The position numbers were made by a program, and so were the translations under genes. A stretch of DNA of 35,864 nt from a virus. The notes below the pieces were generated by a model, which worked only from the letters and a program-made list of their open reading frames with translations, searched no databases and was not told where the DNA came from. The stretch is from UHGV virus genome UHGV-0042415; one strand, 5' to 3'. This document shows, one piece after another, positions 5,992-30,052 of this stretch; within the stretch, counting starts at the first letter, position 1; each line of letters opens with the position of its first letter.

Positions 5992-6308
5992 AGTATGCCG
6001 TTCTCACAAAAAAACCGCTTGCCATGCCGCAATCAGTCAGGTTACATTTCCGCTGCACCTCATAAAACGGGTGCCGGGATTGGAACCCCGCAGACTAACA
6101 GAGCGCACAACCGCGCCAGCGGTTTTTTTGTGCGTACCGTATCGCCACGTCTTTTTCGCGTCAAAATTATGGTGGGGCGTACAGGGCCAGCATCAGCTGG
6201 GCCGGGTCCTCTGTTAGCCGGTAGTTCCAACCCTGTACGTCTCACCACCCCGAGCTTGGAACCTCTGGATGGTGAGTTTTCAAAACTGACTAACAGAGAG
6301 GCCACACC

Positions 6309-6608: not shown

Positions 6609-6974
6609 ATGATTCTCGCCAACGACTTTCTTGAATACCTGCTCAACACAGAACGTGATCTTGCCGCTCGCGTGCGTGATCGTTATGACATGTACCTGAA
6701 ATCCCTGCCTGTACCGCAACTCGCTGACGGAAAAATTGTTATTGATGGTCGCTACATGATTGACAGCCACGAGGGAAATTACAGGCTTTACCGCATTGAA
6801 GGTGGCACCCCGTCCGTTATTGGCATTTACCAGCGCCCATCCTCTGCAATCGTCGATGTGATTGCCGACAGCATCCGCATCACACATCGCCATGCCGACA
6901 CAGAAGACACCGTGCTGGAAATTCAGCGGCTGGCTGCCGTCTGCCGCGACACCCTGAATGGCATGACGAAGTAA
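6609..6974 (+). CDS. Hypothetical protein immediately upstream of gpA
   Basis: 121 aa; SD aagagga upstream. Confidence 0.6.
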   Translation: MILANDFLEYLLNTERDLAARVRDRYDMYLKSLPVPQLADGKIVIDGRYMIDSHEGNYRLYRIEGGTPSVIGIYQRPSSAIVDVIADSIRITHRHADTEDTVLEIQRLAAVCRDTLNGMTK

Positions 6975-6980
6975 ATCACT

Positions 6981-9779
6981 ATGACGGCAGAGTACATCAG
7001 GGACTGGCAACAGCCGCGCCACGCAGTGGGACGTGAAGGAACGGGGATCCCCGTTCCTGAATCCGCGCTTTCCTCCTGGCTGGATGCCTACCGGGCAGAG
7101 AACGAGCGCCGCCAGGAAATGGCTGATGCGGCGTTCTCCGCCACGCCGCTGGGCAACCTGATTAATAAAAGCCTGGATGCACAGGAAAAACAGGACAAAA
7201 CCATCACACTGGCAGGAGACGCCAGAAAACAGGTACGCGGTGCGGTGGATGAAGCCATGGCCTCGCTGCGCCTGCTGCCGTCCTATCTGCGCGATCCGCT
7301 TATTCGCCACCTCTCCTTCCTGCGCAAAAAACAGGAAGCCGATCGCCGGAAAGGCAAAAAGAGCTGGCAGGCTGAACGCTACGCGCGCGGAACCCTGCGC
7401 AAAATATTCGAACGTCTGGACCGCACCGACCACCGCTGGCTGACACCGGGTTATCGCTCCCTTGCCGGACGCGAACGCCTGGATGATTTGCTTTACCTGC
7501 CGCAGCTCAACAAGCACCAGATACAGACGCTGGCCACCATGACGGCGGCGATGTTCAGCAGCACCTTCGAAAAACTCTGCGATGGCTTTGGCGCGACTGA
7601 TGGCGAGCTGACCATGGAGGTAACGCTGAAGGCGTATCAGATGCTGGCCCGCATGGCGTTACACCTGCACGCCATGCCTCCGCATTATGACGCACTGACA
7701 ACAGACAAAGACCGGAGGAACGAACCGGACACGGAGTTGCTGCCGGGCGCAATCCTTCGCCTGACCTGTGCGGAATGGTGGAAACGCAAACTGTGGCTGT
7801 TACGTTGCGAGTGGCGGGAAGAACAACTCCGCGCCGCCTGTCTGGTTTCCAGAAAAACATCGCCCTATCTGAGCCAGGACGCGTTAAGCGAGTTTCGCGC
7901 ACAGCGCGAGAAAACACGCGATTTCCTGAAAAGTTTCATGCTGGAAAACGAAGACGGGTTCACGATTGATCTCGAGACGGTGTATTACGCGGGAGTAAGT
8001 AATCCGGTTCATCGTAAGGCAGAAATGATGGCCACCATGAAGGGGCTGGAACTTCTGGCCGAAGCCCGTGGCGACAAAGCGGTGTTTCTGACTGTCACCT
8101 GCCCGTCAAAATACCACGCCACAACAGAGAACGGTCATCCGAATCCCAAATGGAACGGGGCCACCATGCGCGACTCCAGCGATTACCTGGTTAACACGTT
8201 TTTTGCGGCGGTCCGCAAGAAACTGAACCGCGACGGCCTGCGCTGGTATGGCATCCGCACGGTGGAGCCTCACCATGACGGCACCGTGCACTGGCATATG
8301 ATGGTCTTTGCTCATCCGGAAGAAATCGACACCATTGTGTCCCACACCCGCGATATTGCCATTCAGGAAGATCGTCACGAGCTGGGTGATGATATTACCC
8401 CACGCTTTAAGGCGGAGTACGTCGACGGCTCAAAAGGCACACCGACCAGCTACATCGCCACCTACATCGGGAAAAACCTGGACAGCCGTGCCGTGGATGG
8501 CATCGACCCGAAAACGGGCAAGCCACGCGTTGACCACGAAACCGGAAAATCAATGGCCGAGAGCGTGGAACGCGCCATCGGCTGGGCGCGCCTTCACCGG
8601 GTCCGCCAGTTCCAGTTCTTTGGTATCCCCTCCCGTCAGGTGTGGCGTGAACTGCGCCGCCTTGCCAGCCAGATGGCTCGCAACCCGGAAGGACCGCAAC
8701 GGCTGAAGGATGACGCAATGGACGCGGTTCTTGCTTCCGCTGATGCCGGATGTTTTGCCACCTACATAGAGAAACAGGGCGGCGTACTTGTTCCACGCAA
8801 GGACTACCTGATTCGCACCGCCTACGACCTCGCAGATGAGCTGAACGATTACGGTGAACAGAGCGTACAGATTTACGGGATCTGGTCACCGCTCATCGGG
8901 GAGTCTTCCCGCGTATGCACGCATCCGGACAACTGGAAGCTGGTAAGACGCAAACCGGAAGCGGAAGACAGCGCCCGCGAAAATGGTTTTGACCTTCAGG
9001 GCGGCCCTGCCGCCCCTTGGACTCGTGGCAATAACTGTCCCCGTGTACAGGAAACGGACAACAACGGGACAGAACAGCCGGAAGAACGGCCAGCACCGTG
9101 GCCGCAGCTTCCTGACGGCGTTGACGTGAATGAATGGATGCGCTCACTGAAACGGCACGAACGCCGGGCGCTGATGCGTTCGCTGCGTGACAAACAGGCA
9201 AAAAACAGCAGTGATGAAATGCAGAACTGGACACAGAGCCGCAAACAGCCACAGCCTTTGCCTGATAACCACGAGTTACTCGCTAAAGAATGGCGGGAGT
9301 CTGCTGAATCTCTCGGCCTGCATATCGGTGAACAGCAGGTGCAGCACCTGTTACGGGGCGGCAGTCTGTACGTTGACGGCAGCATCATTGCACCGCAGGG
9401 ATTTGAAATTGTACGCAAACCGGATACCCGCCAGGACAGCCGAATCACGCAGCTCTGGCAACGCCTGAGCCGTAATCACGGCGTAAGCAGCACGGAGATC
9501 CGCCATAACCCGGTCGCCAGCTATCTGGAACAGCTGGGGGCATCAGACCCTGAAGCCGCCGCACGCCTGGCATCCACACTTCAGCAGGACCAGAACACCA
9601 TGAAAACACCCGTTACCGTGCTTTCTGACATGCTGCGCGCCATCCGCGACGCAGAGCACGCACAGAGAATCAGTGAAACCACTGAACGCGCCCGCCGCAA
9701 AGCAGACCTGCTGCGGGGTGGCCTGACCAGTGGAAACAAAAAAACAGACAGAAACGGGACTCACAAATCCCGTAAATGA
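6981..9779 (+). CDS. A: Rolling-circle replication initiator (P2 gpA-like endonuclease)
   Basis: 932 aa; HUH-type motif VHWHMMVF and paired catalytic tyrosines YIATYIGK as in P2 A-family initiators; long Q/R/E-rich C-terminal extension. Confidence 0.88.
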   Translation: MTAEYIRDWQQPRHAVGREGTGIPVPESALSSWLDAYRAENERRQEMADAAFSATPLGNLINKSLDAQEKQDKTITLAGDARKQVRGAVDEAMASLRLLPSYLRDPLIRHLSFLRKKQEADRRKGKKSWQAERYARGTLRKIFERLDRTDHRWLTPGYRSLAGRERLDDLLYLPQLNKHQIQTLATMTAAMFSSTFEKLCDGFGATDGELTMEVTLKAYQMLARMALHLHAMPPHYDALTTDKDRRNEPDTELLPGAILRLTCAEWWKRKLWLLRCEWREEQLRAACLVSRKTSPYLSQDALSEFRAQREKTRDFLKSFMLENEDGFTIDLETVYYAGVSNPVHRKAEMMATMKGLELLAEARGDKAVFLTVTCPSKYHATTENGHPNPKWNGATMRDSSDYLVNTFFAAVRKKLNRDGLRWYGIRTVEPHHDGTVHWHMMVFAHPEEIDTIVSHTRDIAIQEDRHELGDDITPRFKAEYVDGSKGTPTSYIATYIGKNLDSRAVDGIDPKTGKPRVDHETGKSMAESVERAIGWARLHRVRQFQFFGIPSRQVWRELRRLASQMARNPEGPQRLKDDAMDAVLASADAGCFATYIEKQGGVLVPRKDYLIRTAYDLADELNDYGEQSVQIYGIWSPLIGESSRVCTHPDNWKLVRRKPEAEDSARENGFDLQGGPAAPWTRGNNCPRVQETDNNGTEQPEERPAPWPQLPDGVDVNEWMRSLKRHERRALMRSLRDKQAKNSSDEMQNWTQSRKQPQPLPDNHELLAKEWRESAESLGLHIGEQQVQHLLRGGSLYVDGSIIAPQGFEIVRKPDTRQDSRITQLWQRLSRNHGVSSTEIRHNPVASYLEQLGASDPEAAARLASTLQQDQNTMKTPVTVLSDMLRAIRDAEHAQRISETTERARRKADLLRGGLTSGNKKTDRNGTHKSRK

Positions 9780-9880
9780 GCAAAAAACGTGCCGCGATAT
9801 ATGAAGCGCGCACAAAACAGGCAAAAGCGGGATTTAAAAATCCTGTAACCGATTAATTAATCAACATAAGGAAAAGCGAC

Positions 9881-10840
9881 ATGAAAATTTGTATCGACGA
9901 CGGCTCCACCAACATCAAGCTGGCATGGACTGAGAACGGCGAACGCCGCAACGCCATCAGCCCGAACAGCTTCAAGTCGGAATGGTCTGCGCCGTTCGGT
10001 GGCACGCAGCCCGCGAACTACATGCTTGATGGCGTGCGCTATGGTTTTGATCCGGTCAGCGATCGCTTTGTCCAGACGACCGACACGCAATACCAGTACA
10101 GCGATGTGAATATAATTGCCATTCATCACGCGCTGGTCAAATCAGGCATCACACCACAGGAAGTGGATGTGGTTGTCACCCTGCCACTGAGCGAGTATTT
10201 CGATACAAACGCACAGCCGGACATGGCCAACATCAACCGCAAAAAAGCGAACGTCATGCGCCCGGTGGAGTACCAGAACGGCGAAGCATTCACTATCCGT
10301 AACGTACGGGTTATGCCTGAATCCATTCCGGCTGGCTTTAAGGCACTGGCTGACATGAGTCCGTTTGAATCCCTGCTGATTGTGGATTTGGGCGGAACCA
10401 CGCTGGATGTGGCAAAGGTTCAGGGGCAACTGGCAGGTATCAGCCAGGTGTTTTGCGATCCACACGTGGGCGTTTCTCTGATGGCCGATGCCGTACTGTC
10501 GGTGATGGCCACTAACGGTATGCGCACCAGTCACCACATCGCCAATACCATTATCGAACATCGCCATGATGAAGCCTGGCTGCGCCAGCACATCCACAAT
10601 GACGCGCATTACGCCAGCCTGATGGCGGTAATTCGTGAAAAGGAAGAAACACTGAAACAACGCGTGATCCGCGCGCTGGCGGGTTTTTCGGGTTACGGGC
10701 GGGTGATGGTTGTCGGTGGAGGGGCGGAGATTGTGGCACCCGCTATCCGCGAAGCCTGCGGAGTTAATGCGACTTTCATCGCGGACGGGGTGCCACAGTT
10801 TGCTCTGGTTAATGGGCTGTACGCAATGGACAAGGAGTAA
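9881..10840 (+). CDS. parM: ParM/StbA-like actin-fold segregation ATPase
   Basis: 319 aa; N-terminus MKICIDDGSTNIKLAW closely matches plasmid R1 ParM (MLVFIDDGSTNIKLQW); phosphate-2 motif LIVDLGGTTLDVA; same length as ParM. Confidence 0.85.
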   Translation: MKICIDDGSTNIKLAWTENGERRNAISPNSFKSEWSAPFGGTQPANYMLDGVRYGFDPVSDRFVQTTDTQYQYSDVNIIAIHHALVKSGITPQEVDVVVTLPLSEYFDTNAQPDMANINRKKANVMRPVEYQNGEAFTIRNVRVMPESIPAGFKALADMSPFESLLIVDLGGTTLDVAKVQGQLAGISQVFCDPHVGVSLMADAVLSVMATNGMRTSHHIANTIIEHRHDEAWLRQHIHNDAHYASLMAVIREKEETLKQRVIRALAGFSGYGRVMVVGGGAEIVAPAIREACGVNATFIADGVPQFALVNGLYAMDKE

Positions 10841-10844
10841 ACCA

Positions 10845-11156
10845 ATGACGACTCCAACCAGACGGATAAGTTTCTATCTGAAGCCCACCGCCGTCAAGAA
10901 CGAAGGAGAAGCATGCGCCTGGCTGGACAGCCTTACACCAGAAGCCCGCAAAAGCGGCCAACGCGTGGCTTTTCTGGCCGGGCTGGCACTTCTGAAAATG
11001 AATCCGGCAGAGGCTTATCGACTGGCTGCATGGGCTGGTGATGAAGCGTTATCAGTGACACAAACCAGGACAGAACGCCCCGCATCACAGCCAGTATCAA
11101 CCGCACAGATAACCAGTCAGATGGCCGGAAATATCCGGGCGTTATTTCCTGAATAA
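10845..11156 (+). CDS. parR: ParR-like small DNA-binding adaptor protein
   Basis: 103 aa from the ATG at 10845 with SD aggag; RRISFYLKP...AFLAGLALLKMNP...IRALFPE resembles R1 ParR (RTIAFKLNP...AALTAGLALY...LRSLFPKE); directly follows parM. Confidence 0.65.
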   Translation: MTTPTRRISFYLKPTAVKNEGEACAWLDSLTPEARKSGQRVAFLAGLALLKMNPAEAYRLAAWAGDEALSVTQTRTERPASQPVSTAQITSQMAGNIRALFPE

Positions 11157-11219
11157 CACAACATCAGGGCGAGTTCGCCCTGCTCTCCACCTCAGAACAT
11201 AAACAAGGAGAACGACTTA

Positions 11220-11603
11220 ATGAGCGAAATCAACTATCAGGCATTACGTGAACGTTATTCACCTGTGCCAGTACCGAAATGCCCTATTTGCGGCGAGGAA
11301 ATGTCAATTCAGCGAATATCTGGAGCACAGGTTGTTTATGCCTGCTCCGGTTATGGTGATGATGGAGATTTCAAAATTGGTCGAACTCTTGCCGACGAAC
11401 ATTATGAAAAATCACGCGTAACAGTGTTGGATGTCGGGGATCCTGAAGTATTGGCGCTACTTGATTGGCTGGAAACCAAAGACAACCGAATCGCTGAACT
11501 GGAAAAAATCGCCACTGACTATGCACTTAAATTCCAGAAAGCACAGGACGCATTAAAGTACGCCGCTTTGCTGCATAGCAGGACAGCGCAGCTAAAATAC
11601 TAA
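11220..11603 (+). CDS. Hypothetical protein with N-terminal Cys cluster and helical C-terminus
   Basis: 127 aa; CPICGEEM...YACSGYGDDGD; SD aaggag upstream. Confidence 0.6.
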   Translation: MSEINYQALRERYSPVPVPKCPICGEEMSIQRISGAQVVYACSGYGDDGDFKIGRTLADEHYEKSRVTVLDVGDPEVLALLDWLETKDNRIAELEKIATDYALKFQKAQDALKYAALLHSRTAQLKY

Positions 11604-11693
11604 CTTAAAGCGGAAGATTAATACATGGTGAGTCGGGGTAATTTGTTTTTATCCCGACAAATAAACAAAAAAGTGGACTATCTCTGTAGTATC

Positions 11694-12224
11694 TTATTCA
11701 GCATCGTCTCGTGCAGTCTGTGCATACGTCACAACAACGCCCAATGCATTAGTTTTCTTTTCAACATAGATAATATTGTCATATTCATAGTTACCATACG
11801 GATAGCAAATAAGAATATTTTTATGCAGTTCGGGATCATCAACAAACGCTCCGGAACAGCTTCTTGAACTACCAGATGTATACTCATACGGTGCAACATA
11901 TGATGATGTTACTCCTGGTAAAAAATAAGTCACCATCATAAGAGGGATAATCAGGAATATCCCTGTAAGAATGCAAGAGCCAGCATAAACCTTCAGGTAT
12001 TCCGACAGTCCTTTCCAGCCACTTTGCTTCACTACCCCCCTCTTCACCAGAAACAAGGAGAAGAAAAAGGACATACCCATACTACACAAGATGTAATAAT
12101 TGGATATACGCGAATTAAGATATGTAATCCTGTAGATATCTGCCCTCCACCAGTAAAAGAGGAAAATAATCCCTAGCACTGAAACAGTCATGCAAATCAA
12201 ATAAGGATATGAATCTTTCTTCAT
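11694..12224 (-). CDS. Three-TM inner-membrane protein with soluble C-terminal domain (AT-rich cargo)
   Basis: 176 aa; hydrophobic segments YLICMTVSVLGIIFLFYWW, YILCSMGMSFFFSLFLV, CILTGIFLIIPLMMVTYFL; strongly AT-rich gene on the strand opposite its neighbours. Confidence 0.7.
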   Translation of the reverse strand: MKKDSYPYLICMTVSVLGIIFLFYWWRADIYRITYLNSRISNYYILCSMGMSFFFSLFLVKRGVVKQSGWKGLSEYLKVYAGSCILTGIFLIIPLMMVTYFLPGVTSSYVAPYEYTSGSSRSCSGAFVDDPELHKNILICYPYGNYEYDNIIYVEKKTNALGVVVTYAQTARDDAE

Positions 12225-12828
12225 GTCTTGCGCTCATTAAAATTTCCCTGCTACGAACAAATTTACCATCCGTTTTTTGCGCAGAAAACAGCACGATGCA
12301 CACTGCACGATAGTGCACAAATTTGCACAATTTTTTTGAACGACTTTTTCCCCTTCCGGCCCGTATAGCGGCTGGATCCGTCAAGGATCCGTGCGTGCAC
12401 AAAAAAACGCGCTTTTTCTGCGCGCAGGTGACGGGGGAACAGCCCGCGTTTCAGGGGGTAAATAGCATTCCCTGAACGATGTCGCAGCGACACAACAGAA
12501 TGGCTGTATCGCTCACGCTGAGCGTGAAAAATACGTAAGGGGTTCTGATTTGATGGGGTGAAAGGTAAGGCCGTCAAATCGCAATGAGACGGCGAGAACA
12601 TGCTGTCAGCTCGATGGGATTGCGTAAGAGTCTGGCCATCGATGATGGCGATAAGTTGGAAGACGTCGTGAAATTATCTGATTGATACGGGTGCTGGAGA
12701 GTCGGGGCATAAATTTTTTATGCCCCGGCGAAGCAGCAGACAAGCGAAGCGCGTCAGTGATGCGGCACCTTGCCGACCACACTCCATAAGTGCAAAATAC
12801 GAGCAAAGAAATCAATGGAGGCTGTTTT

Positions 12829-13353
12829 ATGGTCATTAATTACAAGCAGTTACGAGAAAAACGAGAGCAGGTAAAGGAAAGTTTTCGCCGCAATGAAGAT
12901 CTGACCCCGCTTGTACACCTTGCCCAGGGAATTGTTGATGCTTATGAAATCTCTCTGGAGCTGCCATCACAGACATGGACGGATAGCGACGGTAATCGCC
13001 AGCATTACGTTTCATGCGGACTGGAAACAACTGAAGGGTTTCGCAGAATGCCTTTATCTCAGATTCCTGCCGCTACCCCCAAAGCAAGGGGCGGCAATGA
13101 TGAGCGAAAACTGATTTTTAGCATTGAGACAGTGGTTGACGACACACCTGGCGAAGTCGCGTTCGTGCATACTCCTCTTTCGATCGCAATGTATAACGAT
13201 GAAATACAGGTTCGCGTTAATAATAATATCGTGCCACTTAAAGAAGGTAATTCACCCTACACCACCGTTTGTGAAGCCATTCAATATTACGTTCTCTCTG
13301 AAATTGATAATCTCAAGCCTGACGGCACCCAGAAAATGGTTCAACTCTGGTAA
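12829..13353 (+). CDS. Hypothetical soluble protein between the putative cos region and the portal gene
   Basis: 174 aa from the ATG at 12829 with SD ggagg (the ORF track starts at an upstream GTG); followed by its own terminator. Confidence 0.6.
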   Translation: MVINYKQLREKREQVKESFRRNEDLTPLVHLAQGIVDAYEISLELPSQTWTDSDGNRQHYVSCGLETTEGFRRMPLSQIPAATPKARGGNDERKLIFSIETVVDDTPGEVAFVHTPLSIAMYNDEIQVRVNNNIVPLKEGNSPYTTVCEAIQYYVLSEIDNLKPDGTQKMVQLW

Positions 13354-13359
13354 TAAGGA

Positions 13360-13384
13360 CAGCCCCATCACGGGGCTGTTTTTT
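13360..13384 (+). terminator. Rho-independent terminator
   Basis: cagcccc-atcac-ggggctg stem followed by TTTTTT; overlaps the portal stop codon. Confidence 0.7.
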
Positions 13385-14414
13385 CATCAAGAAGTGCATA
13401 AGAGTTAAAACGGATCACCTCTTCGCCAAGCCAGTCATTGATGTGCTTCATGGCCTCCATGACGGGCATCAGCTCGTTAATTGCGTAAACCCGCGCGGCC
13501 TTCTCCACATCACCAAACGCACTTTTTTCACCCGGCATCGCCCCCATCAGTTGCGGCGGAACGCGGTGCGCAGCCAGCACATCATCACGGGATGCCGCCT
13601 TAACATTCATGAACTCATCCTTTGCGGTGATCTGCTGGAACGGCAAAATTTGCACCCCCTCTTTGCCCCCGTTGGGCGCATGAATGAGCACGTTTTTAAA
13701 CGCACCACCACCACGTGCCCCCTGTAGCGTTTCTTTCAGGGAGTCCATGCTTTCGCGGTTTACCTGCGCTGCACCGATGTAGATGATGCACCCGGCGTGG
13801 GATCCGTTGTCGTAATACAGTTTTCTGAACATGTCCGCCGAATGAGACAGGCTGGCCGAGAGTAATGCGCCAAGATATTCCGGCATGCCGTAAATTTCCT
13901 GGTTAATGTCAGGATTCATCAGGTGGCACACTTTACCAGGGCGAAACTGAAACGCATCCTTGCCATCCTGCACATACCACCATGATTCAAGATCGCTTCC
14001 GCGTCGCATGTATTTCGCCAGGGCGTGCCGTAATTTAAGCGGTTCGCCGAGCATATTGCTCCGAAGCTCAAGGAATGCGTTACCGAACACAAACCAGTCC
14101 AGCGCCAGCGCCGAGAAATCCTGCCGGGAAAGCAGCGGGTGCGGAATGTAGCAACCGAGCAATACATTACGCTTAAAGTAAAGCGCAGACTGATGCCAGG
14201 ACGTTTGCCGGGCAGCTCTTGCCAGACCGTACCAGTCCACCGGGGTTTCATACCACCGCCCGTTATCAGCACAGTACATGTTGTCCAGCAGGTCATGCCC
14301 GGTCAGGCGATAAGGACCATCAAATGTGAATGCACTGAGCGATGATTCTTTCCTGAGCGCATCAGCGAGATCAATGCGTGAACTCATGCGCACTTTTTTA
14401 TTTTTTCTGCTCAT
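13368..14414 (-). CDS. Q: Portal protein (P2 gpQ-like)
   Basis: 348 aa; size and sequence resemble P2 Q; 1-nt overlap with the terminase gene; leftward orientation as in P2. Confidence 0.9.
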   Translation of the reverse strand: MSRKNKKVRMSSRIDLADALRKESSLSAFTFDGPYRLTGHDLLDNMYCADNGRWYETPVDWYGLARAARQTSWHQSALYFKRNVLLGCYIPHPLLSRQDFSALALDWFVFGNAFLELRSNMLGEPLKLRHALAKYMRRGSDLESWWYVQDGKDAFQFRPGKVCHLMNPDINQEIYGMPEYLGALLSASLSHSADMFRKLYYDNGSHAGCIIYIGAAQVNRESMDSLKETLQGARGGGAFKNVLIHAPNGGKEGVQILPFQQITAKDEFMNVKAASRDDVLAAHRVPPQLMGAMPGEKSAFGDVEKAARVYAINELMPVMEAMKHINDWLGEEVIRFNSYALLDEKTAP

Positions 14415-27214: not shown

Positions 27215-30052
27215 TTAATCTTTATCGTAAAAACGGCCACGTCCGGCACGGTCACGTCGTTCCATTTCTGTCCTGACCATTTCACCGACCAGTTTCGCCA
27301 GTTCGCGGGGATTCTGCGTAACAACGTTATGCAGATGAACATGAATTTCACCACCAAATCCGGAGGCAACAGGCTCCCGGTTACGGGGAGGAGCAGGAAC
27401 AGATGCCACTGGCGATCGTATGGCCTCCGCCACCGGGCGGGAGCTGGCAGCAACAACAGGGACCAGCGCCGGAGGCAGCGGAGCCGGGACCACGGGTGTG
27501 ATATTGATTGCGGGGGCAGGCTTACTGACCTGCGCAATCTTCCGCTCCTGCCACTCCCCACGAACGGCAAGTGCGCGTGGCAGGTTCTTAAAGACAATAT
27601 CGCCGGGGCCAATGCGTTTTTTCGTCTCATCAACCAGCTTACCTGTGTTATCAGCAATTTTGCTGAGTCTGCGTTGCGTACCGGTATTGCTGTCTGTGAG
27701 CGGTTTGTTGTCTTTGGGTTTATCGCCTCCGGTGCCATTTTCCGCTGGCTTCGGCGGATTGATTTTCGCCAGATCCCCCTGAAGCAAGGCAACCTTATCC
27801 TGAAGAATGGCCGCACGCTGTGCGTCTTCGATTTTCTTTCTCGCCCTTTCCGCTTCATCCGGAAGCACACCGAGCTTTTCAAGTATCCACGCCAGCGTAT
27901 CCAGCAGCATTTTTGCAGGCGTCAGAACAAGCTGTAGCGCACCACCAAGAACGTTACCAAATACCTCGCCAGCACTGGTGCACTTATCCAGTGTTTCCTT
28001 GCTGGACTCCATCGGTGACAGCAGCGATTTAAACCAGTTAAACACCTGGCTGATCCCGCTTCCGATTATGTCAAAAACAGGGCCAAACCGTTCAAAGGTT
28101 TCACGCAGCGGAGCCAGCTTTTCCATAATTCCGCTGAACACCCCGGCAAAAAATGCCTTAATCGGGTCCCAGTATTTCCAGATGAGAACCGCCGCAGCCA
28201 CAAGTGCAGCAGCAACCAGACCAACCGGACTGAACAGCGTCCCGAGAGCACCGCCCAGCAAAGAGACGGAACCCGTCACCATTCCCCATAGTGCAGGCAA
28301 CACCCTGACAACATTCATGGAACTGGTCAGAAGAGAAAAACCAAGACGCAACGTGGCCAGCTTCCCGTAAAGCACCCCAACAACCAGCGATAACGAGCCT
28401 ACGGTTGCTGTCATTGCCAGCAGCGCACCGCCTGCAATCAGCAACTGGCGCGTCAGTACCGGATGGGCCTGTGCCAGCGCCGTCACCTTTGTGACCACAC
28501 GCGTGAGCCACTGTGTGACAGAACGCAGCGGCCCATCAATCAGATCACTGATGCGAATACGCAGCCCTTCCCATGCGCTGCCGAGTGATTTCAGGTCGCC
28601 GTCAAGGTTGTCGGCCATAACCTTTGCTGTACGCTCTGCCTCACCGCGCGCAGCTTCAAGCTCTTTTCTCAGTTTGGGTAAGGAACCGTTACCCGCCGCA
28701 TCAACGAGCGCCATAAACGATGTGAAAGCCTCTTCTCCGGCAATGTCCTTAAAGAACGATACCCGGTCAACTTCCCCGTATTTGCGGGTGGCTTTATAAA
28801 GGTCGGCCAGCACATTCTCCATCGGGCGCATTTTGCCGTTCGCGTCAGAGACGGCCACACCCAGTTCTTTCAAAGCATCAGCGGTTGCCTTTGGCTGTGT
28901 TACCAGACGAGCCAGGCTGGCACGCATTGCCGTCCCGGCATCACTCCCCCTGATCCCCATATTCGCCAGCACACCCGCCATTGCTGCGGCCTGCTCCAGC
29001 GATATTCCCAGCTTGCCCGCCACCGGACCTGCATATTTCATGGTTTCACCCAGTGCGCGAAGGTCAGTGTTGGTTCGGGTAAACGCTGCGGTGAGTGTGT
29101 CACCGACCCGGTCCATCTGGTCAGCAGAAAGGCCGAACTGCGTCAGGATATTTGAGCCAATATCCGCCGTCTCGCCGAGGTCCATACCGCCAGCCGTTGC
29201 CATGTTCAGCACGCCGGGAAGCGCAGCCTGAATGGCTTCTGGTGTGAAGCCAGCCATTGCCAGAAAGCTCTGTCCACTGGCGGCATCGCCTGCGGTGAAC
29301 TGTGTTTCAGAGCCAAGTTTTAACGCCTGCTCACGCAGCGCCTTAAACTGCGGGCTGTTTTTGTCGATTCGCGTCAGTGCCTGAACGCGGGACATCTCTT
29401 TCCCGAACCCGATGGCAGGCTGTAAAAAACGCCCGGCAGCATAGCCGCCAGCCGCTGCCGCGCCAATTGCCAGCGCACCACCCGTTTTCAGTTTTCCCGC
29501 TGTTTCCTGCGCGCGCGAATACCGCTCACGCGCCCGTGTTACACGCGCAAGCGCCTGCCGTTCGCGTTCAAGCTGGTTGTTGTATTGTTCGGTGCGTCTG
29601 ATGGCCTGCTGGATGGTGTTATCGCTACCTGTCAGGGAAATGCCGTGGCGTTTCAGCTCTCCGCCAAGTTCCCGCATTTTCTGAATTTCCCGTGTGCGCG
29701 ATTCGTTCAGGCGTTCAAGCCGGGTGCTTAACTGCTGCATCAGCTTTTGTTGTTTTTCGCTGAGCACTGTCCCCGAGCGTTGTAACTGTTGAAGGGCGTT
29801 AAGCTGGCGTCGTGCTTTCACGATGCCCGCATCCGCTTTACTGACAGCGTCACGGGCGCGCTCAAATGAACGCGCCTGACGCTCAAGATTTTTGATCGCC
29901 CCCTGCGTTCGCTGGATGGAGTCACCAAACTGTCCCATCAGACGGCGGGCGCTTTCGACAGGCCGGGTCAGCCTGTCAACGGCGCTGAAAGCGACCCGGA
30001 TATCAAGAGTCTTCATTGTCTGCATTCCCGCTGCGAAGTGCCGCCCGCTCAC
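27215..30052 (-). CDS. T: Tail tape measure protein (P2 gpT-like)
   Basis: 945 aa; coiled-coil N-terminal half, Ala/Gly-rich hydrophobic central segments; follows E/E'. Confidence 0.92.
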   Translation of the reverse strand: MSGRHFAAGMQTMKTLDIRVAFSAVDRLTRPVESARRLMGQFGDSIQRTQGAIKNLERQARSFERARDAVSKADAGIVKARRQLNALQQLQRSGTVLSEKQQKLMQQLSTRLERLNESRTREIQKMRELGGELKRHGISLTGSDNTIQQAIRRTEQYNNQLERERQALARVTRARERYSRAQETAGKLKTGGALAIGAAAAGGYAAGRFLQPAIGFGKEMSRVQALTRIDKNSPQFKALREQALKLGSETQFTAGDAASGQSFLAMAGFTPEAIQAALPGVLNMATAGGMDLGETADIGSNILTQFGLSADQMDRVGDTLTAAFTRTNTDLRALGETMKYAGPVAGKLGISLEQAAAMAGVLANMGIRGSDAGTAMRASLARLVTQPKATADALKELGVAVSDANGKMRPMENVLADLYKATRKYGEVDRVSFFKDIAGEEAFTSFMALVDAAGNGSLPKLRKELEAARGEAERTAKVMADNLDGDLKSLGSAWEGLRIRISDLIDGPLRSVTQWLTRVVTKVTALAQAHPVLTRQLLIAGGALLAMTATVGSLSLVVGVLYGKLATLRLGFSLLTSSMNVVRVLPALWGMVTGSVSLLGGALGTLFSPVGLVAAALVAAAVLIWKYWDPIKAFFAGVFSGIMEKLAPLRETFERFGPVFDIIGSGISQVFNWFKSLLSPMESSKETLDKCTSAGEVFGNVLGGALQLVLTPAKMLLDTLAWILEKLGVLPDEAERARKKIEDAQRAAILQDKVALLQGDLAKINPPKPAENGTGGDKPKDNKPLTDSNTGTQRRLSKIADNTGKLVDETKKRIGPGDIVFKNLPRALAVRGEWQERKIAQVSKPAPAINITPVVPAPLPPALVPVVAASSRPVAEAIRSPVASVPAPPRNREPVASGFGGEIHVHLHNVVTQNPRELAKLVGEMVRTEMERRDRAGRGRFYDKD

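Follow-up and report, generated by a model that had tools for sequence, protein, structure and literature searches.

An R1-type ParM/ParR module in the replication region of P88-like prophages: conservation, a candidate centromere and a probable role on circular phage DNA

Why would a phage that integrates into the bacterial chromosome carry the genes of a plasmid-type partition system? The question is raised by the virus genome UHGV-0042415, a stretch of 35,864 nucleotides (hereafter the window), in which the interval 9780-11156 encodes an actin-like ATPase, ParM, and a predicted centromere-binding adaptor, ParR. The window represents a prophage of the P88-like group (Xuanwuvirus, P2 family). 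In Escherichia coli M8 a prophage with 100% identity over the region is integrated next to yecA, and P884B11, P88, PhiR44_2, Citrobacter phage PhiSM and others are 94-99.8% identical. A preliminary description, made from the letters of the window, had placed the pair between the gene for the rolling-circle replication initiator gpA and a group of cargo genes in an integrated P2-family prophage, and this position is borne out by the neighbouring Phage_GPA, portal and terminase genes. The comparisons presented here indicate that the module belongs to the backbone of the P88-like lineage and suggest that it probably serves the extrachromosomal form of the phage genome.

The parM gene (9881-10840, plus strand) has a ribosome-binding site, AAGGA, at 9868-9872 and encodes a protein of 319 residues. 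The N-terminus of the product, MKICIDDGSTNIKLAW, contains the phosphate-1 motif (DDGSTNIKL) and an internal segment, SLLIVDLGGTTLDVAK, the phosphate-2 motif (LIVDLGGTTLD). Residues 1-157 match the Pfam domain StbA_N (E = 3.7e-82) and residues 159-316 the ParM C-terminal domain (E = 1.3e-68), the match to phrog_691 ('partition protein') is at 7e-90, and the crystal structure of R1 ParM (1mwk, 320 residues) gives a full-length alignment with the window protein over residues 2-316 (E = 1.2e-92). Among 14 sequences of the phage clade, the invariant residues are D6, D7, G8, S9, T10 and K13 of phosphate-1, P146, E147 and S148 of a PES motif, D169, G171, G172, T173, T174 and D176 of phosphate-2, and the GGG at 279-281. 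The initial identification, which rested on the two motifs and on a length close to that of the R1 protein, is therefore borne out by the Pfam and 1mwk matches. A closer relationship to another actin-fold ATPase, named in the preliminary description as the outcome that would overturn the identification, was not found; the domains are StbA_N and the ParM C-terminal domain, and the R1 ParM structure aligns over the full length. These matches confirm the product as a full-length R1-type ParM.

The parR gene (10845-11156, plus strand) encodes 103 residues and starts at the ATG at 10845, 4 nt past the parM stop codon and 8 nt past an AAGGAG sequence (10832-10837). This short gap and the ribosome-binding site couple the translation of parR to that of parM, and the TTG at 10710 that the mechanically generated list of open reading frames (ORFs) gives as the start is an artefact. 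The protein matches PF10784, Plasmid_stab_B (E = 3.1e-23), and phrog_2515 ('partition protein'), the latter covering 103 of 103 residues, and a BLASTP comparison with StbB/ParR of plasmid R100 gave 32% identity over the first 62 residues (E = 2e-8). The product is thus confirmed by similarity as an adaptor of the StbB/ParR family, in agreement with the earlier assignment of a ParR-like protein after parM, and the sequence and profile searches uphold the identities of both proteins. Across genera, ParR conserves an N-terminal strand (RRISFYLKP), a helix (QRxAxLAGLAL) and a C-terminal tail (N-x4-FP), joined by a hypervariable linker. Several alleles occur, of 103 and 104 residues; residues 1-14, the central helix and a C-terminal NIxxxFPE tail are common to them, and their linkers are hypervariable. 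At some loci, for instance 6965-7279 of the related locus L009 and other loci of the E. coli type, ParR alleles that are 53% identical stand beside ParMs that are 99% identical and beside identical upstream sites; the breakpoint of this allele recombination lies near codon 18, at about position 10899 of the window.

Both proteins are already named in RefSeq and PHROGs and the module is not rare. Of 5426 complete E. coli genomes, 1308 (24%) contain it, some in two or three copies, and 1454 of the 1456 copies are chromosomal. The view that such a system is unexpected in a P2-type phage was therefore overstated, given this frequency and the existing annotations. In a collection of 50,697 phage records, a gpA homologue was found in 384, and ParM in only 14 of those, all P88-like; where gpA is at least 80% identical to that of the window, however, ParM is carried by all of the records (14/14). 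Protein searches showed steps in ParM identity, with values of at least 91% in Escherichia, 54-62% in Hafnia, Plesiomonas, Serratia and Enterobacter, and about 50% for plasmid ParMs. The loci with a ParM at least 54% identical came from E. coli, E. albertii, Salmonella, Hafnia, Plesiomonas, Serratia and Enterobacter, and in every one that was fetched a homologue of gpA and/or of the P2-type portal adjoins the module. In the Hafnia, Plesiomonas, Serratia and Enterobacter prophages it occupies the same slot in the order gpA-parM-parR-cargo-portal. By contrast, at loci with a ParM at most 52% identical, such a neighbour was found in 0 of 14. Two of the ParMs of about 50% identity that lie on long chromosomal contigs were examined, of which one belongs to a conjugative element and the second to a plasmid that has integrated. 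In a neighbour-joining tree of 106 sequences the phage-linked ParMs form one clade of 16, with R1 ParM outside it. Capture of a plasmid module, one of the origins considered in the preliminary description, can consequently be upheld only as an ancient event, as the phage-linked proteins now form a clade of their own.

The module is also under selection. A scan of IMG/VR with the ParM alignment returned 80 near-identical E. coli loci, which were used for conservation and for the ratio of non-synonymous to synonymous substitution rates (dN/dS) and which added no diversity; scans with single diverged ParMs returned three further loci only, and the Hafnia query none. An intact ParM of 319 residues is encoded by 85 of 85 copies of the E. 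coli type, and the median dN/dS among these copies is 0.048 for ParM and 0.16 for ParR. The guanine plus cytosine (GC) fraction of parMR is 0.51-0.58, as in the phage backbone, and falls to 0.375-0.48 in the cargo after about 11200. Purifying selection, a position kept across genera and a backbone-like GC fraction together indicate that the module is an old, selected backbone component of the P88-like phage lineage, and neither a recent insertion nor a relic nor cargo. The possibility that it belongs to a separate inserted element, raised earlier, does not agree with the position after gpA, kept in at least seven genera, or with the GC fraction.

Some database records that carry the prophage have unusual labels. 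A 226-kb contig labelled Vagococcus sp. WN89Y (NZ_JBQPOM010000071.1) contains a P88-like prophage with a ParM 98% identical to that of E. coli; contamination or a wrong label on the assembly is the most likely cause. The prophage is present as well in several large 'plasmid' records, of 228 kb to 1.4 Mb.

A partition locus of this type should include a DNA site, and the interval before parM contains a candidate. A repeat search identified a 35-nt direct repeat in two copies, AAAACAGACAGAAACGGGACTCACAAATCCCGTAA at 9741-9775, which overlaps the last codons of gpA, and AAAACAGGCAAAAGCGGGATTTAAAAATCCTGTAA at 9814-9848. With 80% identity between them, the copies are spaced by 73 bp, or about seven turns of the helix, and each has a 20-bp palindrome at its end. 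Palindromic site 1, ACGGGACTCACAAATCCCGT (9754-9773), is an inverted pair inside copy 1, and palindromic site 2 (9827-9846) lies inside copy 2, so that the two sites straddle the gpA stop codon. The core of site 2 is GGATTTAAAAATCC at 9830-9843, exactly where the palindrome GGATTT-AA-AAATCC had been reported in the preliminary description. That description had also stated that there was no clear iteron array, a remark that needs amendment, as it had missed the second palindrome and the 35-nt direct repeat. The pattern CGGGA-N8-TCCYG has 5 matches in the window (3 distinct sites, both strands counted) against 0.14 expected, and this number was reached in 0 of 100 shuffles.

Across 84 related loci the central 4 nt vary, whereas the half-sites on either side, CGGGAyT and AATCCCG, are retained. 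The consensus of these relatives is ACGGGATT-N4-AATCCCGT, with the centre CACA or CACG at site 1 and TAAA or TCAG at site 2, and site 2 is perfect in most of them, as either ACGGGATTT-AA-AAATCCCGT or ACGGGATT-TCAG-AATCCCGT. Conserved half-sites around a variable centre are the pattern expected of a symmetric protein-binding site, and they fit an RNA hairpin with a free loop as well. Among the related loci, no association was found between the ParR allele (103 or 104 residues) and the centre of site 2 (TAAA or TCAG). The third exact CGGGA-N8-TCCCG site, CGGGACATCTCTTTCCCG at 29388-29405, is within the tape-measure gene; the related phage genome L002 is without it, and it is therefore probably a chance occurrence.

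The repeats recur, in changed form, in the diverged prophages of other genera. The Plesiomonas prophage has the same layout, with GCGGGACAACAAAAACCCG and GCGGGACAACACTAACCCA 72 bp apart. In Hafnia, CGGGTTCATTAAATCCCA is kept at the same distance from parM and is preceded by A/C-rich units, AAAAACGAAC and AATAAACGAAC, that are similar to the R100 iterons. The prophages of Serratia and Enterobacter have an inverted pair of 14-20 nt starting with ACGGGAAC, the members of which are 26-28 nt apart; these paired repeats are lineage-specific with the core ACGGGA in common, and the ParR strand reads RKISF there in place of RRISF. Where one or two extra ORFs intervene between gpA and parM (Hafnia and Enterobacter; loci L003 and L007), the repeats stay immediately upstream of parM and not with gpA. 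The evidence from these four genera favours a link of the repeats to parMR, and the two 35-nt copies with their palindromes are a likely candidate for parC.

The genes gpA and parM are on the same strand with a gap of 101 bp. A consensus scan found no sigma-70-like promoter (9700-9880) and no plus-strand terminator-like site between them, and inspection of the gpA-parM interval by eye together with the scan gave no pair of hexamers with the key A2/T6 positions. The conserved sequence ATTAATCAA was considered as a -10 element and rejected, as it is too near the ribosome-binding site to be convincing. Given the common strand and the lack of a promoter or terminator in the scan, the simplest reading is that parMR would be co-transcribed with gpA in an early replication operon.

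What, then, could the module act on? Because the carrier integrates and the genes follow a replication initiator, the most plausible substrate is the circular phage genome. In R1, capture of filaments by the ParR tail and pushing by ATP-driven ParM filaments are established, and rolling-circle replication of P2 yields monomeric circles, which are the substrate for packaging. We consider it probable, with some reserve, that the module is a complete and functional type II (ParMRC-like) DNA-segregation cassette that acts on extrachromosomal circular phage DNA. ParR dimers would bind the two palindromic sites by means of the N-terminal ribbon-helix-helix strand, the C-terminal tail of ParR would catch the ends of ATP-ParM filaments, and growth of the filaments would drive apart the ParR-bound circular genomes. 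Such action would be limited to the extrachromosomal phase, that is, after injection and circularisation, after excision, and during rolling-circle replication by gpA. The benefit may be that replicating circles are spread or positioned for efficient replication and packaging, or that a copy is kept in both daughter cells if division precedes integration or lysis. A wider proposal is more tentative, and we regard it as possible rather than probable: that the R1-type actin machine is integral to P88-like replication, with ParR at a minimal two-palindrome centromere and ParM filaments organising gpA rolling-circle replication, through coupling to the HUH initiator and/or distribution of circles for packaging, possibly with a transient low-copy plasmid (carrier) stage.

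The closest relatives by sequence are the ParMRC loci of R1 and R100 (StbA/StbB/parC). The phage locus has two of the elements that define the R1 type, namely a motif-bearing actin-fold ATPase and, as judged by sequence, a small downstream ParR adaptor. The phage ParM is full length with all nucleotide-binding motifs and about 50% identity, the phage ParR shares the Pfam family of its plasmid counterpart and has 32% identity to it over the N-terminal segment that binds DNA, the order sites-parM-parR is the same, and the short C-terminal tail of ParR is conserved. The host replicon differs, being a low-copy theta plasmid there and an integrating rolling-circle phage here; in addition the phage ParR is shorter (103 against 116 residues) and the phage ParMs form a separate clade. 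In the R1 type a promoter lies within parC under autoregulation by ParR, and none of the module's own was detected in the consensus scan.

The best functional analogue is AlpC/AlpA/alpS of the Corynebacterium glutamicum prophage CGP3 (PMC4446434, PMC5539076), which likewise consists of a prophage-encoded actin-like filament protein with an adaptor. AlpC and AlpA are induced early, on excision; the adaptor binds a site ahead of the operon that encodes it, and efficient replication of the circular phage DNA depends on the pair (PMC4446434). The host phylum and the type of phage are unrelated, and AlpC is a distant actin-like protein that is set apart from the R1 type here without a sequence comparison. 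SrpMRC of the SXT/R391 elements is also a type II-like partition locus of a normally chromosomal element that acts on an excised, rolling-circle form, and excised R391 falls about 4-fold in copy number when srpM is lost; however, SrpM and R1 ParM are no more than distant relatives, a ParR domain is not recognisable in SrpR, unlike the phage proteins, which are close to those of R1, and the element is conjugative and not viral (PMC4489591). The layout common to these two systems, an actin-like protein with an adaptor and an upstream site, is present in the P88-like module, where the link to an early operon would follow from gene order. The P1-like phage-plasmid D6 is the only other phage among the 50,697 records with a ParM relative (47.5% identical over the full length), but it is a 91-kb plasmid prophage whereas the P88-like phages integrate.

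Several observations weigh against a segregation cassette of the R1 kind. The parC of R100 has two sets of A/C-rich direct repeats, of 11-bp periodicity, that flank a promoter core, while the phage element has two palindromes and is much smaller; the R1/R100 layout is one of 5+5 iterons, with which the R100 repeat sets agree, and the ParRs for which DNA complexes have been solved bind direct repeats. The palindrome region folds as RNA hairpins better than shuffled sequences do (z = -3.25) and a frequent variant of site 2, CCTG, retains a G-U pair on the plus strand, and for these reasons a role at the RNA level is possible. A search with Rfam gave no known RNA family at the module itself (9700-11300). 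The promoter scan is a crude consensus test that could miss a ParR-regulated promoter active in lysogens. A single-sequence AlphaFold model of ParR had a predicted local distance difference test (pLDDT) score of 49.8, too poor to confirm the fold, and in the open-access papers searched the module was found only in annotations and not in a functional study.

Part of the evidence could also be read as a role in replication itself, in which ParM and ParR would act mainly through gpA, an HUH endonuclease, by stimulating nicking at the origin or recruiting the replication complex to a site in the cell, with filament pushing secondary. This idea draws on the location of parMR downstream of gpA in every phage locus examined, on the finding that the relaxase TraI, likewise an HUH endonuclease, is a binding partner of R1 ParM and ParR and is stimulated by them (PMC4949242), and on the requirement for AlpAC in CGP3 replication and the reduced R391 copy number in the absence of srpM. 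It is weakened by the one or two unrelated ORFs between gpA and parM in Hafnia and Enterobacter and by the divergence of the two proteins, for the gpA neighbours of the diverged phage ParMs are 29-55% identical to the window gpA against 54-62% for ParM, so that tight co-evolution is not evident. As the chief function it seems unlikely to us, and it is compatible with the segregation cassette rather than exclusive of it. A different use of the same machinery would be long-term maintenance, whereby P88-like phages would persist over many generations in the form of circular low-copy episomes that rely on ParMRC for partition, instead of or beside integration. A circular E. coli 'plasmid' of 34,461 bp (NZ_CP148288.1) is indeed a whole P88-like genome with integrase, cox, gpA, parMR and the structural genes, a 26.8-kb Shigella record also matches, and D6 uses a related StbA-type ParM. 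The circle may, however, stem from the separate assembly of excised or packaged phage DNA. Phage-plasmids are extrachromosomal, usually have no integrase and possess a plasmid replicon, whereas P88-like copies number 1454 chromosomal against 2 plasmid, the window prophage beside yecA has an integrase gene (50-1051), no plasmid-type theta replicon is evident, and published descriptions of PhiSM and P88 present both as temperate phages that integrate (PMC6456863, PMC5285337). The episomal lifestyle suggested in the preliminary description is therefore poorly supported, one 34.5-kb circle hinting otherwise, and we hold it to be improbable.

The preliminary description had also proposed a device that excludes competitors. 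Expressed in lysogens, ParR or ParMR of the prophage would mishandle incoming phages or plasmids with the same centromere, as a form of incompatibility or defence. The gpA-to-portal region of P2-like phages holds variable cargo, anti-phage genes included. The module borders this region, and within E. coli there are several ParR alleles, whose linkers are hypervariable. Cargo for anti-phage defence would nevertheless be recognised by a match to a known family and by variable presence, and neither was found: PADLOC has no match for ParM, ParR or their neighbours, and the module is conserved backbone, with the variable region beginning only after 11156-11182. Furthermore, the alleles do not differ in the N-terminal DNA-reading segment of ParR or in the sites, so that no diversification of specificity is visible, two or three copies coexist in some genomes, and the plasmid ParRs beside ParMs of 47-52% identity are not detectably similar. 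The lack of a PADLOC match, the backbone conservation and the co-resident copies leave the exclusion idea without support, and we judge it highly improbable. Passive carriage of an inert relic of an old recombination between plasmid and phage would account for the module being present in only 14 of the 384 gpA-bearing phage records, and thus being dispensable for P2-family phages in general. It does not account for 85 of 85 intact ORFs, a dN/dS of 0.048, invariant catalytic residues or a position kept down to 54% identity, and since purifying selection was measured this explanation is effectively refuted.

The surroundings of the module are those of a P2-family phage. The order is gpA, parM, parR, the low-GC cargo (11200-13400), then portal and terminase, and the early operon runs from about 2800 on the plus strand. 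The gpA protein (6981-9779, plus strand, 932 residues) matches Phage_GPA (E = 1.1e-131) and phrog_91 ('nicking at origin of replication'). Compared with Peduovirus P2, only residues 77-744 of the query match, at about 32% identity, and the C-terminal extension (about residues 750-932) is without a Pfam domain and ends inside repeat copy 1. Further upstream, Rfam identifies an isrK Hfq-binding RNA (6055-6129, 72 bits) and a C4 antisense RNA (6165-6252, 78.5 bits), both on the plus strand. A terminator consisting of a hairpin and a T-run is present at 6109-6124, and with the two RNAs it lies inside the early operon, upstream of two small ORFs and gpA. The RNAs resemble the immI switch of P1 and the isrK switch of Gifsy-1, and may gate the expression of gpA and parMR.

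Just past parR there is a hairpin, CAGGGCGAGTTCGCCCTG (11165-11182), with a perfect 8-bp stem that is terminator-like on the minus strand. BLAST matches to related phages often stop at about 11156-11182, which marks the downstream edge of the conserved module. The cargo beyond it comprises an Ead/Ea22-like protein (11220-11603, plus strand), a predicted membrane protein of 176 residues (11694-12224, minus strand; phrog_1416) and a protein of 187 residues (12790-13353, plus strand; phrog_5091). A PADLOC search with ParM, ParR, gpA and these three cargo proteins gave no match. In related phages this slot holds other genes, including HicAB and a KAP nucleoside triphosphatase.

Integrating elements with an actin-like partition locus are already known, and the P88-like module is a very widespread and experimentally tractable case whose candidate centromere is atypical. 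Roughly one complete E. coli genome in four encodes a chromosomal 'plasmid segregation protein ParM' that derives from this prophage family. Because the family carries ParM on the chromosome, matches to ParM or ParR are poor markers of plasmid contigs in the Enterobacterales. Should the element with two palindromes prove to be the centromere, its parC would be unusually small for a ParR of the R1 type and would inform the minimum number of sites required for a ParR-ParM segrosome. Since P88 and PhiSM grow on E. coli K-12, genetic testing is easy. The presence of a selected actin-like machine throughout a lineage of integrating rolling-circle phages suggests that the circular phase needs active positioning of the DNA, a need that has precedent in CGP3 and in SXT/R391. 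Were the machine integral to phage replication, the commonest ParMRC system in E. coli would be viral and not that of a plasmid.

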